Of a DNA stretch of 5,740 nt, positions 3,364 to 5,740 are shown one piece after another. How positions within the stretch are numbered: position 1 is the first letter of the stretch; each line of letters opens with the position of its first letter. Source of the DNA: a virus; the IMG/VR virus record IMGVR_UViG_3300045988_010074; one strand, written 5' to 3'. The notes under the pieces are model-generated. The model saw only the letters and a list, made by a program, of their open reading frames with translations. It made no database searches and was not told where the DNA came from. The position numbers and the translations under genes were made by a program.

Positions 3364-3401
3364 AAAAAAAAAAAAAACAAGGTGGGTTTTTGTCCACCTT
3401 G
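3364..3401 (-). terminator. Rho-independent terminator for minus-strand transcripts
   Basis: On the minus strand, an 8-bp stem CAAGGTGG / CCACCTTG (3401..3394 and 3385..3378) with an 8-nt loop is followed directly by a run of 14 T (3377..3364). It begins 10 nt after the stop of the 56-aa ORF. Confidence 0.75.
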
Positions 3402-3411
3402 CTGATTTTAG

Positions 3412-3582
3412 TTATTTGTTTTCGTATTCTTTGAGTTTTTCACAGATTGCATCTGTCCATTCTTTATCGAATCCGAATTTTTTTCTGAACTTCTCGCCGT
3501 CTGTGCTTTTGTAGTGTCTTCTGTGCATTTCCTTTGCTAGTCTGGTGATCTCTTCTTCATACATCGTCATTTTAAACACCAT
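3412..3582 (-). CDS. Hypothetical 56-aa hydrophilic protein, the sole gene of the P2-to-terminator unit
   Basis: This is track ORF 3412..3606 trimmed to the ATG at 3582, because the GTG at 3606 lies inside the P2 promoter spacer. Sequence: MVFKMTMYEEEITRLAKEMHRRHYKSTDGEKFRKKFGFDKEWTDAICEKLKEYENK. The Shine-Dalgarno site is weak or ambiguous (AAAGGTG / GAAAGG), and in-frame ATGs at 3570 and 3564 are alternatives. Confidence 0.55.
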   Translation of the reverse strand: MVFKMTMYEEEITRLAKEMHRRHYKSTDGEKFRKKFGFDKEWTDAICEKLKEYENK

Positions 3583-3588
3583 CCTTTC

Positions 3589-3608
3589 TACACCTTTATT
3601 ATACACCT
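3589..3608 (-). promoter_or_regulatory. Tandem direct repeat AGGTGTA-TAATAA-AGGTGTA overlapping the -10 and start region of P2; candidate operator
   Basis: The minus strand reads AGGTGTA (3608..3602), TAATAA, AGGTGTA (3595..3589), with a 13-nt period. The same arrangement sits in the same register at P1. Confidence 0.4.
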
Positions 3609-3626
3609 AAAATATACACTTGTCAA
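3598..3626 (-). promoter_or_regulatory. Promoter P2: perfect sigma70/sigmaA consensus
   Basis: On the minus strand, TTGACA (3626..3621), a 17-nt spacer and TATAAT (3603..3598). It is intergenic, downstream of the VP4 stop and upstream of the 56-aa ORF. Confidence 0.7.
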
Positions 3627-3645
3627 GCATTATTTTAAGTTTTTG

Positions 3646-3687
3646 GCTGTCCGTTCGGCCGTGGTCGGCCGACGAATAGAGGACAGC
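3646..3687. repeat. Compound inverted repeat (nested hairpin) in the VP4 to P2 intergenic region
   Basis: The outer 7-bp arms are GCTGTCC (3646..3652) and GGACAGC (3681..3687). The inner 6-bp arms are TCGGCC (3655..3660) and GGCCGA (3667..3672). The inner element is also a direct repeat, TCGGCCG-TGG-TCGGCCG. No U-tract follows on the coding strand. Confidence 0.5.
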
Positions 3688-3750: not shown

Positions 3751-4854
3751 TTAGACCTCGGTGCGTATGAGTTTGCTTATTCGTTCTTGCATTTTTTTGT
3801 CTTTCAGGTTATAATAATCCTGCATGGTCAGGCCGGTCTGCTTGAGCTGAGCAAATAGAGCGTCGTTCGCGATTCTTCGGCGCTCTCGTTTAATTGCTTT
3901 CAGTTCTTCGGATTCGGCTTTTTCTGTTATATCTTCAATTTTTTGCACTTCTTCATCTGTCAGCGGCTTTGCTCCATGGTCGATGTCGAATAGCTTGTCA
4001 AAGTATCTTGGCGGTTTACAGATTTTTCCGTTCTTTAGCTGTATTTGATCTTTTTCGTAGATTTCCGCTGCATGGTCATAGTAGTATTGTGCACCTATTG
4101 CCGGTTTTTTGCTCATAAGGCATTGTTCCGGCATAATGCCTAGTTCTTCATAAAATTTTTTGCCGTCCTTTCCGTAAATCTTTTTTGTTGTGTACCTTGC
4201 TGTGTATGCCATAGATCGCCATTCTGCTGGTGCTAGAATGACGTGTCCCATGCCCCAGATTTTTTCTAGCCATTCGCAGTTATAGTATGTGAATCCTCTT
4301 TCTTTCTTGTAAACTTTTAAATCTTCCTGTTTTATTGGTAGATCGTAGACAATTGCGTGATAGTGTGGTCTGTGTGTCTGGCTGCCGTATTCGCCAGCTT
4401 GGAAATACATTAGCTTTCCGGTTCCTTTTTCGTGATACTCTATGTATCGCCGCAGACGTTTCCAGAATTTTTGCATGTCCTCATAGCATAGACTCAAGTT
4501 TTCTGTTATTACTTCGCCTGTCAGTGTGTCCCATGTCGCTCGATATGGGACATTTTCGTTATCATAGGTGAGAGTTAGGAACCATGCGTTCTTGTGGTAT
4601 GGCAGCTCCATTTCCATTCTGTTCGCCCAGGATGCTGCGTTCGCCATTTTGCATCCAGGACAGTGCCCGCATGGTAGCAGCTGAGCATTCTGTTCTTTGA
4701 GCAGTTTTTTAACTCGCTGTTCGTTCCACTTCTGCTGTCTTTGATCAGCGTCAAACTCTAGCCTTTCGCCTGTTTTTGACAAGTATGCCTTCAGGCTGAC
4801 CACTCTTTCTTGTCTGTTGATGACGGTTCTAACCAATGGTCTCGTACATGGCAT
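3751..4854 (-). CDS. VP4: Replication initiation protein VP4 (HUH rolling-circle endonuclease), 367 aa
   Basis: Microvirus Rep motifs are present: N-terminal MPCTRPL, LPCGHCPGCKMANAASWANR, motif I WFLTLTYD, motif II GEYGSQTHRPHYHAIVY, motif III YTARYTTKK and MSKKPAIG. The start is set at the ATG at 4854, with AAGGAAGGAGG 12 nt upstream, rather than the track's TTG at 4926. Confidence 0.93.
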   Translation of the reverse strand: MPCTRPLVRTVINRQERVVSLKAYLSKTGERLEFDADQRQQKWNEQRVKKLLKEQNAQLLPCGHCPGCKMANAASWANRMEMELPYHKNAWFLTLTYDNENVPYRATWDTLTGEVITENLSLCYEDMQKFWKRLRRYIEYHEKGTGKLMYFQAGEYGSQTHRPHYHAIVYDLPIKQEDLKVYKKERGFTYYNCEWLEKIWGMGHVILAPAEWRSMAYTARYTTKKIYGKDGKKFYEELGIMPEQCLMSKKPAIGAQYYYDHAAEIYEKDQIQLKNGKICKPPRYFDKLFDIDHGAKPLTDEEVQKIEDITEKAESEELKAIKRERRRIANDALFAQLKQTGLTMQDYYNLKDKKMQERISKLIRTEV

Positions 4855-4878: not shown

Positions 4879-4919
4879 AATGGGCCCCAATAACCTTCTT
4901 GATGTTATTGGGGCCCATT
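4879..4919. repeat. Perfect 16-bp inverted repeat with a 9-nt loop, directly abutting the VP4 ribosome-binding site
   Basis: The arms are AATGGGCCCCAATAAC (4879..4894) and GTTATTGGGGCCCATT (4904..4919), with loop 4895..4903. It sits in the 140-nt untranslated spacer between the 55-aa ORF and VP4. No T-run follows on the coding strand. Confidence 0.65.
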
Positions 4920-4994: not shown

Positions 4995-5162
4995 TCATGC
5001 TGTTTTGTATCCTAGCGCTTCTGCGTATACATCAATTGCATCCCTTATGATATCGCTGTCGATGTATTTATCATACAGTTTGCATGTTTTGATGAACTCT
5101 AGTTCTTCGATCTGTTTTTGTGTTAGGTTGATGTTCATTCTTTTTGCCATTTGGCTTCTCAT
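4995..5162 (-). CDS. Hypothetical 55-aa protein, possibly ribbon-helix-helix-like; first gene downstream of P1
   Basis: Translated base by base as MRSQMAKRMNINLTQKQIEELEFIKTCKLYDKYIDSDIIRDAIDVYAEALGYKTA. ATG at 5162 has AGGAGG 7 nt upstream, and the stop is TGA at 4997..4995. A basic stretch plus a short strand (KRMNINL) followed by two amphipathic helices fits an RHH, but the inter-helix linker is longer than canonical. It is below the track size cutoff. Confidence 0.55.
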   Translation of the reverse strand: MRSQMAKRMNINLTQKQIEELEFIKTCKLYDKYIDSDIIRDAIDVYAEALGYKTA

Positions 5163-5180
5163 GGTATGCCCTCCTACTTT

Positions 5181-5214
5181 AGGTGTGCGATTCTTACACC
5201 CATATTATACACCT
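5181..5214 (-). promoter_or_regulatory. Tandem direct repeat AGGTGTA-TAATAT-GGGTGTA plus an inverted copy ACACCT over the -10/+1 region and leader of P1; candidate operator
   Basis: The minus strand reads AGGTGTA (5214..5208), TAATAT, GGGTGTA (5201..5195), AGAATCGC, ACACCT (5186..5181). The 13-nt period and the register relative to the -10 are identical to P2. Confidence 0.4.
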
Positions 5215-5232
5215 CCTCTTTGTGTCTGTCAA
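5204..5232 (-). promoter_or_regulatory. Promoter P1: perfect sigma70/sigmaA consensus
   Basis: On the minus strand, TTGACA (5232..5227), a 17-nt spacer and TATAAT (5209..5204). It starts immediately after the VP2 stop codon (5235..5233) and lies upstream of the 55-aa ORF and VP4. Confidence 0.7.
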
Positions 5233-5740
5233 TTACCATTTTCGCATTGCTTTTCCGAGACCGTACAGGGCTGCACCTGCTGCCTTCGTTTTCGCTTTGT
5301 TTCCAGCGTCTATGAGCTTTGTGCCTGCTTCTACGGTTGTCGGCGTTGTAGTCTTTCTGCCAGACTGTTCGTTGTTGTAGGTGTTGTTTGCGGTCTGTGC
5401 AATGTTTCCAACGGTTTTTGCGCTGCTTGAACCAATGTTTTGCATGATACTCTGCATGTAACTGGCTTCTTCCCAGTTTTTGGTTTCTTTTGCCGTGTTG
5501 ATCGTCTGCATGGCGTTCTGCAGAAATTGCGCTGTGTTGTTTCCGTAGTCATACATTGCTTGCATGGTGGCTGTGTGTGCTGCTGGAATTCCTGATGCTT
5601 GAGTGTGGCTAAAGGTTGTGTTTCCTACAGCTGCCTGGCCTCCGCTGCCTGAGCTTGCACCAAACCCGTTGTATGCTGCCAGTGCTGGGTTCAGACCTGC
5701 TTTCTTTAGGTCTTCTACCCCTCTCTGGTAGGCTGTGCTG
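5233..5740 (-). CDS. VP2: VP2 pilot protein, C-terminal portion (150 aa from 5685 down to the stop at 5235..5233); 5686..5740 duplicates 1..55
   Basis: Track ORF 5233..5565 extends upstream in frame with no stop to 5685; I translated 5566..5685 by hand as ALAAYNGFGASSGSGGQAAVGNTTFSHTQASGIPAAHTAT. The frame joins exactly with the codon ending at position 1, which restores ...KKAGLNP|ALAAY... Confidence 0.85.
   Translation of the reverse strand, partial: STAYQRGVEDLKKAGLNPALAAYNGFGASSGSGGQAAVGNTTFSHTQASGIPAAHTATMQAMYDYGNNTAQFLQNAMQTINTAKETKNWEEASYMQSIMQNIGSSSAKTVGNIAQTANNTYNNEQSGRKTTTPTTVEAGTKLIDAGNKAKTKAAGAALYGLGKAMRKW
5686..5740. repeat. Terminal direct repeat, right copy; marks circular closure
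   Basis: The 55 nt are identical to 1..55. Confidence 0.95.

Follow-up and report, generated by a model that had tools for sequence, protein, structure and literature searches.

Two paralogous promoters of a gokushovirus-like genome carry a conserved, 13-bp-phased array of GTGTA heptamers, a candidate operator for the phage's own ribbon-helix-helix protein

The DNA considered here is a stretch of 5,740 nucleotides, called the window in what follows, from IMG/VR virus record IMGVR_UViG_3300045988_010074. Its two ends share an identical segment of 55 nucleotides (1-55 = 5686-5740), and since such a terminal overlap is an assembly signature of circularity, the window represents a circular genome, of 5,685 nucleotides and 46.6% G+C. 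The genome is gokushovirus-like: the nearest GenBank records found by megablast are Microviridae of the gokushovirus type from human and pig gut, with DNA identity, of about 75%, confined to the capsid gene. All convincing genes, in open reading frame (ORF), Pfam and PHROG scans, lie on the minus strand; coordinates are in window numbering, and promoters and gene order are read on that strand. Our subject is a pair of promoters, P1 and P2, and a heptamer, RGGTGTA, that is repeated over both of them. We weigh the possibility that the heptamers are operator subsites for the product of RHH55, the gene directly behind P1, which encodes a predicted ribbon-helix-helix (RHH) protein of 55 amino acids.

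P1 is followed by RHH55 and then by VP4, the rolling-circle initiator (Rep) of HUH type, with no other consensus promoter between; the order is the same throughout the clade of relatives described below, and we infer that the two genes are co-transcribed from P1. P2 stands downstream of VP4, in front of a small cargo ORF and an intrinsic terminator. The structural block comes next (the 35-residue ORF, the gene of a basic 39-residue protein, RHH66, VP5, VP3, VP1 and VP2). No consensus promoter is found ahead of it, at 3376-3320, so that its expression must rest on terminator read-through from P2 or P1, or on a non-consensus promoter. Table 1 gives the positions.

Table 1. Features of the window, in order along the minus strand starting from P1; positions such as -17..-11 are relative to the predicted transcription start.
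Feature	Coordinates	Strand	Remarks
P1 core promoter	5232..5204	-	-35 TTGACA 5232..5227; 17-nt spacer; -10 TATAAT 5209..5204
P1 heptamer 1, AGGTGTA	5214..5208	-	at -17..-11; overlaps the first two bases of the -10
P1 heptamer 2, GGGTGTA	5201..5195	-	at -4..+3; 13 nt 3' of heptamer 1
P1 inverted copy, (C)ACACCT	5187..5181	-	at about +11..+17; ACAC core spaced 13.0 bp from that of heptamer 2
RHH55, 55-aa protein	5162..4995	-	first gene after P1; ATG preceded by AGGAGG
Perfect 16-bp hairpin	4919..4879	-	between RHH55 and VP4
VP4, HUH rolling-circle Rep	4854..3751	-	Pfam REP_ORF2-G2P E=8e-15; PHROG 942 E=2e-97
Second hairpin	~3685..3640	-	between VP4 stop and P2; GC-rich
P2 core promoter	3626..3598	-	-35 TTGACA 3626..3621; -10 TATAAT 3603..3598
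P2 upstream copy, AGTGTAT	3620..3614	-	at -30..-24, within the spacer
P2 heptamer 1, AGGTGTA	3608..3602	-	at -17..-11
P2 heptamer 2, AGGTGTA	3595..3589	-	at -4..+3
GGTGT in P2 5' untranslated region	3580..3576	-	likely Shine-Dalgarno region of the cargo ORF
Cargo ORF, 56 aa	3582..3412	-	behind P2; no family assignment; position hypervariable among relatives
Intrinsic terminator	3403..3376	-	10-bp stem and T run; closes the P2 cargo cassette
35-aa ORF, then basic 39-aa protein (phrog_10695)		-	downstream of the terminator, by gene order
RHH66, 66 aa	3088..2888	-	Pfam RHH_1 21.3 bits (cut-off 20.5); ends overlap the basic 39-aa gene and VP5
VP5, VP3 (scaffold), VP1		-	after RHH66; VP1 is a Phage_F capsid protein, E=3e-165
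VP2	ends 5233	-	crosses the circular junction and is split across the window ends; stop codon 5235..5233

A promoter scan finds in the window two perfect (12/12) matches to the consensus, P1 and P2, and no others. The spacer has 17 nucleotides in each: P1 is TTGACAGACACAAAGAGGAGGTGTATAAT, or TTGACA-GACACAAAGAGGAGGTG-TATAAT, and P2 is TTGACAAGTGTATATTTTAGGTGTATAAT, or TTGACA-AGTGTATATTTTAGGTG-TATAAT. A preliminary description of the window had presented both as exact consensus promoters in intergenic DNA, and this is confirmed: the -35 hexamer of P1 abuts the stop codon of VP2 and the promoter sits 41 nucleotides upstream of the ATG of RHH55, while P2 lies between the stop of VP4 and the cargo ORF, 15-24 nucleotides upstream of the start codons of the latter. 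At the usual distance of 7 nucleotides from the -10 hexamer, transcription would start near position 5197 for P1 and 3591 for P2.

Around these hexamers the two promoters have a module in common, AGGTGTA-TAATAT-GGGTGTA in P1 and AGGTGTA-TAATAA-AGGTGTA in P2. The heptamers and the linker are as first described; the trailing RAA, which was thought to belong to the module, is not shared, for P1 reads AGA there. As to the third copies, the inverted ACACCT of P1 is present at 5186..5181. The partial copy GGTGT announced for P2 at 3581..3577 is in fact at 3580..3576, is only about 50-58% conserved among relatives and lies 6-7 nucleotides upstream of the ATG used in most of them: most likely it serves the cargo ORF as Shine-Dalgarno region and falls outside the array. 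The true third copy of P2 is AGTGTAT, in the spacer. Each promoter has three GTGT/ACAC cores, in either orientation, that are exactly 13.0 bp apart, and an independent repeat finder recovers the same family of 20 nucleotides with a spacing of 13. Compared with shuffled controls, the repetition is far from random: RGGTGTA has 6 matches in the window where 0.68 are expected, GTGTA-N8-GTGTA has 3 matches (one of them at 3619..3602, in P2) where 0.01 are expected, and none of 200 shuffles reaches either count.

Besides six GenBank genomes, we collected relatives by two routes. The first relied on homology to the 55-residue protein and gave 39 IMG/VR genomes; the second relied on the bare 19-nucleotide module GGTGTATAWTAWRRGTGTA, with no requirement on the protein or on the -35 hexamer. 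The total is 58 genomes including the window (321 kb). In the six GenBank genomes both promoter regions are kept nearly base for base, their coding DNA having otherwise diverged beyond what megablast can align. In the set defined by RHH55 homology, 46/46 genomes have a P1-type promoter whose module stands in identical register; conversely, when the module alone was the criterion, every microvirus contig retrieved encodes a member of the RHH55 family. The co-occurrence of module and protein thus holds both ways, in two independent samplings. The place of P1, after VP2 and before the RHH55 gene, is the same in 58/58 genomes, where repeated subsites overlap the core promoter of the gene of RHH55 itself.

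The pattern GGTGTA-TAWTAT-G[GA]GTGTA-N8-AC[AG]C[CT]T describes P1 in all 58 genomes. The cores GGTGTA of heptamer 1 and GTGTA of heptamer 2 are invariant, and at its second position heptamer 2 has G in 30 genomes and A in the other 28. By comparison, the -35 hexamer, TTGACA in 52 genomes and deviating in 6, is less conserved than the heptamer cores; the -10 hexamer is TATAAT in 27 genomes and TATATT in 30, with one case of TATAGT; the spacer varies freely in its upstream half across the clade, and an ACAC that follows the -35 of P1 in the window is not conserved there. Third codon positions provide another yardstick: in the motif R-x-N-x-N-L-T of RHH55, invariant at the amino-acid level, their majority frequencies are only 0.37-0.88. 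Over the whole set the phased pair of heptamers occurs 116 times, 115 times in P1 or P2 and once in a decayed P2, with no occurrence on the other strand.

P2 is found in about 36 of the 58 genomes, always downstream of VP4, and its 31 distinct sequences show an alternation of blocks: TTGACA followed by AGTGTAT is conserved at 94% or more, the next five positions are free, AGGTGTATAATAAAGGTGTA is conserved at 90% or more, GAAAGGA at 74-97%, and noise follows. In the spacer, 12 of the 17 positions are at least 90% conserved, and they form two GTGTA blocks. Heptamer 1 is at least 94% conserved and heptamer 2 between 90 and 97% per position. Far from varying freely among relatives, the heptamers keep their cores while variation is seen in the -35 hexamer, in mid-spacer and at adjacent synonymous sites; they are therefore selected, and not a free piece of spacer or 5' untranslated region. 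On this comparison of sequences, they are a real, clade-specific element under strong purifying selection.

The spacers upstream of the shared module look unrelated in the window, which had led to the statement that the case is not simply one of a duplicated promoter. This was wrong. Two relatives (numbered, like the others below, with an L) bridge the two spacers: the P1 of L008 is TTGACAAGTGTAGAAAAGAGGTGTATATT and the P2 of L018 is TTGACAAGTGTATAAAAGAGGTGTATAAT. Moreover, the P2 of L016, L143, L153 and others carries an inverted arm of the P1 kind, GGTGTAAGAAGAGCACACC. On this sequence evidence, P1 and P2 are paralogous. The sharing of the module within one genome is consequently accounted for by common descent, and any functional argument must rest on conservation across the clade.

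P2, the hypervariable small ORF and the terminator form a cassette that is either present (about 36 of 58 genomes) or absent. Genomes without P2 have no cargo ORF and no replacement promoter, P1 being their only consensus promoter; the terminator is kept in relatives of this kind such as L012, L014 and L015. Several losses of P2 run through, or end in, the repeats: L135 lacks exactly one unit of 13 nucleotides, including the -10 hexamer, and in L009 and L015 P2 is deleted from the -10 onward, heptamer 2 included, with P2 joined directly to the terminator stem in L015. The hairpin at about 3640-3685, GGCTGTCC...GGACAGCC, has a counterpart, CGGCCGACC...GGAC[AG]GCC, directly upstream of P2 in relatives, and it is kept in genomes that lost P2; possibly it serves to terminate the P1 unit.

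Are the heptamers found with other promoters? A control scan of IMG/VR, in which only TTGACA-N12-RGGTGTATAAT was fixed, yields 101 non-redundant unrelated phage promoters. A single one of them (1/101) has GTGTA within 12 nucleotides after the -10, and position-specific information in these 12 nucleotides is near zero: the array is not a generic feature of strong promoters. The 19-nucleotide module does occur in about 18 unrelated families of larger phages. When the gap is left variable, GTGTA follows GGTGTATAWTA in non-microvirus phages, at offsets 0 to 8, in 17, 9, 14, about 16, 7, 10, 7, 1 and 16 cases, and offset 3 is not favoured outside the clade. Because these control scans show no preference for a register, we consider the combination of fixed register and invariance as specific to the microvirus clade.

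In 596 Gb of bacterial and archaeal genomes, the module with its -35 hexamer has 12 matches, in assorted Bacillota, Mollicutes and a metagenome-assembled genome (MAG) of Muribaculaceae, a number which by a rough estimate lies within an order of magnitude of chance. No microvirus genes are found near these matches, no host assignment is gained from them, and, judged from the N-termini, they look like promoters of ordinary highly expressed genes. With matches so few and scattered, and none accompanied by microvirus genes, neither a host-wide motif nor a prophage is supported. Two curiosities came out of the scans. In the Acholeplasma-type MAG contigs L165, L171 and L172 the module precedes a conserved, non-coding-looking GTAAAATTCAAAC...AAAGGCAAAACTAGAGAAATCTAG..., which may belong to a structured RNA gene or leader. 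In L214 (IMGVR_UViG_3300022212_000150, 4.6 kb, no VP1 match) a unit of 13 nucleotides, AGGTGTATAATAA, is perfectly repeated three times in tandem, at about 3456-3474, upstream of a ribosome-binding site; this array shows that a 13-mer containing a -10 hexamer can be amplified by slippage.

The preliminary description also suggested that the genome encodes RHH proteins. The 66-residue protein passes the Pfam RHH_1 threshold. For the 55-residue protein the assignment comes from its family. RHH55 belongs to a narrow family, 28 clusters among 1.84 billion representatives, all of 55-125 residues; Pfam RHH_1 matches 12 of the 28 family representatives, at best with E=9e-4, and single members match CcdA and 56B_RHH. 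Aligned with CopG by hhalign, the family profile obtains E=4.8e-4 with a probability of 32%, over the strand through helix 2, and a profile search of the PDB with RHH55 ranks TTHA0139 (E=0.026), CopG (E=0.54) and ORF56 of pRN1 near the top. An AlphaFold2 model of RHH55 built on the 28-sequence alignment (mean predicted confidence, pLDDT, of 86) has an extended segment at residues 1-14 and helices at 15-27 and 35-49, in agreement with the beta-alpha-alpha topology of RHH proteins; the top Foldseek matches of this very short chain are mostly RHH proteins (NikR, the Arc-operator complex, ParD, PrpA (0.66-0.67), AtaR, pCXC100 ParB, Reg576, HicB3), with template-modelling scores up to 0.67 and E-values of only 1.4-9. 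Depth of alignment matters here: a model made from the single sequence gave uninformative Foldseek matches and a profile of 11 sequences gave nothing against the PDB, both improving with 28 sequences. An hhalign comparison of RHH55 with the Arc sequence gave no significant alignment. On the strength of four independent tests, weak to moderate each, we accept RHH55 as a CopG-like RHH protein. Residues R8, N10, N12, L13 and T14 are invariant or nearly so in the family, polar residues alternating with hydrophobic ones; the strand KR-x-N-x-N-L-T is the putative DNA-reading strand, and its invariance parallels that of the GTGTA core.

RHH55 is the first gene after P1 in 57 of the 58 genomes and the second in L008. 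The expectation that heptamers and RHH genes would go together across relatives holds for presence, at 100% for RHH55, and fails for co-variation in sequence, as discussed below. RHH66 cannot be the general partner of the module: among the 19 genomes surveyed first, 8 have it, every one a member of the subclade of the window (its close relatives L009-L015), and the module is universal. A C-terminal acidic tail, ...EEDLPF or DDLPF, is borne by 11 of the 57 RHH55 homologues of the clade and by several database representatives (L004, L005, L007, L148-L151, L154, L159, L160, L229 and several of P0024-P0050); we take it to resemble the C-terminal tip of bacterial SSB (the protein that binds single-stranded DNA), a recruiter of replication and repair proteins. 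The RHH55 of the window ends with ...GYKTA and has no such tail.

Small RHH proteins that regulate their own promoters are well known, and the gene order recalls one system in particular. In plasmid pMV158, CopG represses Pcr, the source of the copG and repB co-transcript, by binding about 50 bp including the -35 and -10 with four cooperative dimers (PMC2724298). The resemblances with the window are the following: a very small RHH protein (45 residues there, 55 here) encoded directly upstream of the gene of an HUH initiator, one strong promoter of sigma-A/sigma-70 type ahead of the pair, an operator (putative here) that overlaps the core promoter, and a family profile of RHH55 that aligns with CopG over its whole length. 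There are also differences. The CopG operator is a pseudo-symmetric element of 13 bp centred on the -35, in which 5 bp separate the TGCA boxes, whereas the GTGTA repeats, non-palindromic and with centres 13.0 bp apart, span the -10 and +1. In pMV158 an antisense RNA acts as a second control, on the translation of rep; here we find no plus-strand consensus promoter facing the RHH55-VP4 junction and no Rfam match, a weak negative. Unlike pMV158, the window has a strong covarying hairpin between the RHH gene and Rep, and a second, paralogous promoter with the same sites. Finally, the replicon here is an encapsidated single-stranded DNA (ssDNA) phage and not a plasmid, and binding here is a prediction.

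Other RHH systems share other traits. The omega protein binds 7-bp repeats, direct or inverted, that overlap promoters including its own (PMC9499535). Omega, the ParB of pSM19035, places one dimer on each non-palindromic WATCACW heptad, and the array described here likewise mixes direct and inverted copies; however, omega heptads are contiguous, number 7-10 and make up a centromere that works with a ParA ATPase, whereas we count three copies per promoter, separated by linkers of 6 nucleotides, and no ParA gene. Arc and Mnt of phage P22 (immI) are RHH repressors of about 53-83 residues that autoregulate at core-promoter operators, as proposed here, but they belong to temperate phages with double-stranded DNA and have single palindromic operators, on which dimers of dimers sit about one helical turn apart. 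As the 13.0-bp period matches neither geometry, we claim a functional analogy only, and not membership in one of the known operator types.

With this background, it is natural to conjecture that the GTGTA heptamers are operator subsites for RHH55, in an autoregulatory array. We give this reading about an even chance; comparative evidence makes it plausible. There would be three subsites at each promoter, at -17..-11, -4..+3 and, inverted, +11..+17 in P1, and at -30..-24, -17..-11 and -4..+3 in P2. Dimers of RHH55 on these subsites would cover the -10 hexamer and the start site, and exclude or dislodge RNA polymerase; the placement is indeed one that would suit a repressor operator, as had been proposed at the outset. 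Bound RHH55 would shut off P1, hence RHH55 itself and then VP4, and also the paralogous P2, hence the cargo gene and possibly, through terminator read-through, the structural genes. The outcome would be a negative feedback on the replication initiator and on phage gene expression, with the logic of copG-repB in pMV158. Both the binding of RHH55 to the sites and repression by this binding are here what we infer; autoregulation fits the position of RHH55 as first gene after P1.

Several observations weigh against this conjecture. A centre spacing of 13.0 bp puts neighbouring sites about 86 degrees apart on the helix, which is unusual for cooperative RHH dimers, and it agrees neither with Arc and CopG (boxes of 4 bp that stand 5 bp apart in an element of 13 bp, adjacent dimers being about one helical turn apart) nor with omega (contiguous 7 bp). 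The RHH55 of the window has no Pfam match of its own at E<=1 and is unclassified by PHROGs. Co-variation between protein and site was sought and not found: the G/A position of the heptamer does not follow RHH55, RHH55 subtypes are shuffled relative to promoter subtypes, and the recognition strand is invariant. The same heptamer position covaries with the inverted arm of P1 in the manner of a base pair. Co-occurrence of module and protein could reflect linkage and descent, P1 being the promoter of RHH55 and P2 its paralogue. The linkers between the heptamers (TATG in P1, TAAA in P2) are almost invariant, so that the whole -17..+3 block is constrained, and contacts with RNA polymerase could contribute. 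Lastly, AGGTG is also Shine-Dalgarno-like.

The last points lead to an explanation that dispenses with a dedicated phage repressor: the heptamers would be intrinsic to a very strong ancestral promoter that was duplicated, the -30..+3 block tuning recognition, open complex formation, start choice or the 5' untranslated region in a host that is probably one of the Bacillota. AGGTG is the core of the Shine-Dalgarno sequence, complementary to the 3' end of 16S rRNA. P1 and P2 are clearly paralogous, the linkers are as conserved as the heptamers, a 13-nucleotide unit bearing a -10 can duplicate by itself (the three copies in the unrelated L214), and a few promoters of cells and phages that look strong carry the 19-nucleotide module with no RHH55. 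We nevertheless regard this explanation as unlikely, if worth keeping in view. GGTG, at -16..-13, differs from the known extended -10 (TGn), for which the promoter scan is negative; when unrelated promoters share the -35, the spacing and GGTGTATAAT, a downstream GTGTA is present in 1/101 cases and no register is preferred, and the cellular matches are few, scattered over taxa and near chance. In addition, a core-promoter role does not account for heptamer cores better conserved than the -35 hexamer, nor for the third copy of P1, at +11..+17, outside any known core-promoter element.

Another protein may bind the repeats: VP4, in the manner of iterons, RHH66, the 'DNA-binding' protein VP5, or a transcription factor of the host. 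HUH Rep proteins of other replicons do bind direct repeats near promoters or origins, VP4 belongs to the P1 unit, RHH66 passes the Pfam RHH_1 threshold, and no co-variation of protein and site points to RHH55. The distributions, however, make each candidate doubtful. RHH66 is limited to the subclade of the window and the module is clade-wide; VP4 and VP5 are in all gokushoviruses and the module was found, among microviruses, only in those bearing RHH55; no taxon-wide use of the motif in cellular genomes suggests a host regulon. Nor do the repeats have the position of iterons, being far from the best origin-like element of the genome. That element is a perfect 16-bp inverted repeat with a loop of 9 nucleotides, AATGGGCCCCAATAAC-ATCAAGAAG-GTTATTGGGGCCCATT, at 4879-4919, about 260-300 nucleotides from P1 and 1.25-1.3 kb from P2. 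It is present in essentially all 58 genomes; its stem changes extensively with full compensation, its loop, (A/G)TCAAGAR.G, hardly varies, TTTTGTGTCA is conserved just upstream, and no T run follows. It is a candidate for the origin used by Rep, with the nick site in the loop, or for an attenuator before VP4. An origin of replication at P1 is unlikely, both by comparison with this hairpin, which is much more origin-like, and because P2 repeats the sequence of P1: two same-sense origins in one genome would, we reason, be incompatible with rolling-circle replication.

The inverted copy of P1 admits a reading of its own, which we retain for that element alone and not for the whole module. Heptamer 2 and the inverted arm would form a functional stem-loop (GRGTGT / ACRCYT, with a 9-nucleotide loop and a conserved AATC) that acts in read-through mRNA or in the viral ssDNA, as a signal for processing, translation coupling or priming; promoter duplication would then explain, as a side effect, the likeness to the other heptamers. 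In 41 distinct sequences, the six core pairs (columns 15-20 with 30-35) are paired in 41/41. Pair 16-34 is AU in 18 sequences, GC in 12 and GU in 11, never A-C, and the 3' arm has no substitutions other than transitions that preserve Watson-Crick or wobble pairing. The A-T state arose at least twice, in the group with loop CCAATCAC and in L194, which stands in a subclade with loop AGAATCGT that also has members in the G-C and G.T states; each of the three stem states occurs with near-identical RHH55 proteins, and the stem state is independent of the RHH55 subtype. This pattern of pairing fits a nucleic-acid stem; it fits equally well symmetric half-sites with a position that is not read by the protein, and the same symmetric changes would be expected of a palindromic protein site.

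Further facts render the stem-loop improbable. Only one pair covaries; the stability is no better than that of shuffled sequences (z about 0), and the stem is missing from the minimum-free-energy structure of the A-T clade. As the predicted start of P1 lies inside the 5' arm, transcripts from P1 would not contain the stem. The loop has exactly the length that maintains the 13.0-bp phasing of the direct repeats, and a hairpin has no need of that phasing; the P2 of most genomes has heptamers without an inverted arm; and Rfam has no match.

Two other functions for the same segment were rejected. A leader peptide could be encoded by an ORF of 9 codons, MGVRIAHLK* (5203..5174), but codon positions 1 and 2 vary and position 3 is fixed, the opposite of coding constraint, and the ATG is upstream of the predicted start. 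This ATG, directly after the -10 of P1, is invariant in the 58 genomes, with a GGAGGTG 8 nucleotides upstream; the stop overlaps the Shine-Dalgarno sequence of RHH55, and the peptide would be translatable only from read-through transcripts. A sigma-dependent pause element, in the form of a further hexamer of -10 type, is rejected too: AGAAT, CCAAT, CTAAT and GCAAT, which follow heptamer 2, do not have A-11 and T-7 in register.

A more ambitious form of the operator conjecture, to which we grant only a slim chance, sees the arrays as a nucleoprotein platform and not as a plain on/off switch. RHH55 would cover some 45 bp at P1 and P2 alike and throttle the expression of Rep and of the cargo or structural genes; in relatives with the acidic tail, it would tether host partners of SSB (primosome, repair) to the replicative form. 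Only the first half of this scheme could apply directly to the window, whose RHH55 is without the SSB-like tail. As for chance resemblance between two consensus promoters, whose hexamers are identical by definition, its probability is negligible: 0/200 shuffles reach the counts, and 58 genomes keep the module base by base although the rest of their coding DNA has diverged beyond the reach of megablast.

If RHH55 does repress through the heptamers, how unusual would the circuit be? The preliminary description had called it unusual for a microvirus; in the literature that we searched on Microviridae and gokushoviruses, no microvirus-encoded transcription factor is described, and we found no description of an RHH or CopG protein, repressor, promoter or transcriptional regulator. 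A survey of microvirus diversity recognises methyltransferases and lysis-related genes as the only accessory genes, promoters and regulators being unmentioned (PMC9239249), and a paper on gokushovirus resurrection has no discussion of promoters or regulators (PMC7062461).

Phage phiX174 (Bullavirinae) belongs to the same virus order and shares with the window a circular ssDNA genome and host promoters of sigma-70 type. To our knowledge its expression is constitutive, set by the strength of promoters and terminators, with no phage transcription factor. RHH autorepressors being well known, what is new is the microvirus setting, the array phased at 13 bp, its presence at two paralogous promoters and the copG-rep-like gene order.

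Microviruses are among the most abundant gut phages and are usually treated as minimal, constitutive and strictly lytic, an exception to the lytic view being the lineages that integrate by means of the host XerCD recombinases. P1 and P2 are compact, potentially repressible consensus promoters of Gram-positive type, possibly of use as parts in synthetic biology, and natural variants provide ready controls: L135, L009 and L015, and stems in the G-C, G.T and A-T states. Should the platform exist, it would mean control of copy number as in plasmids, and would enable an ssDNA phage of 5.7 kb to persist in a non-lytic carrier state. If the operator conjecture is true, the circuit would be, as far as the searched literature goes, the first dedicated transcription circuit in the family; it would link the control of microvirus replication mechanistically to that of rolling-circle plasmids, and it would offer a possible explanation for the long-term persistence of gokushoviruses in gut communities.

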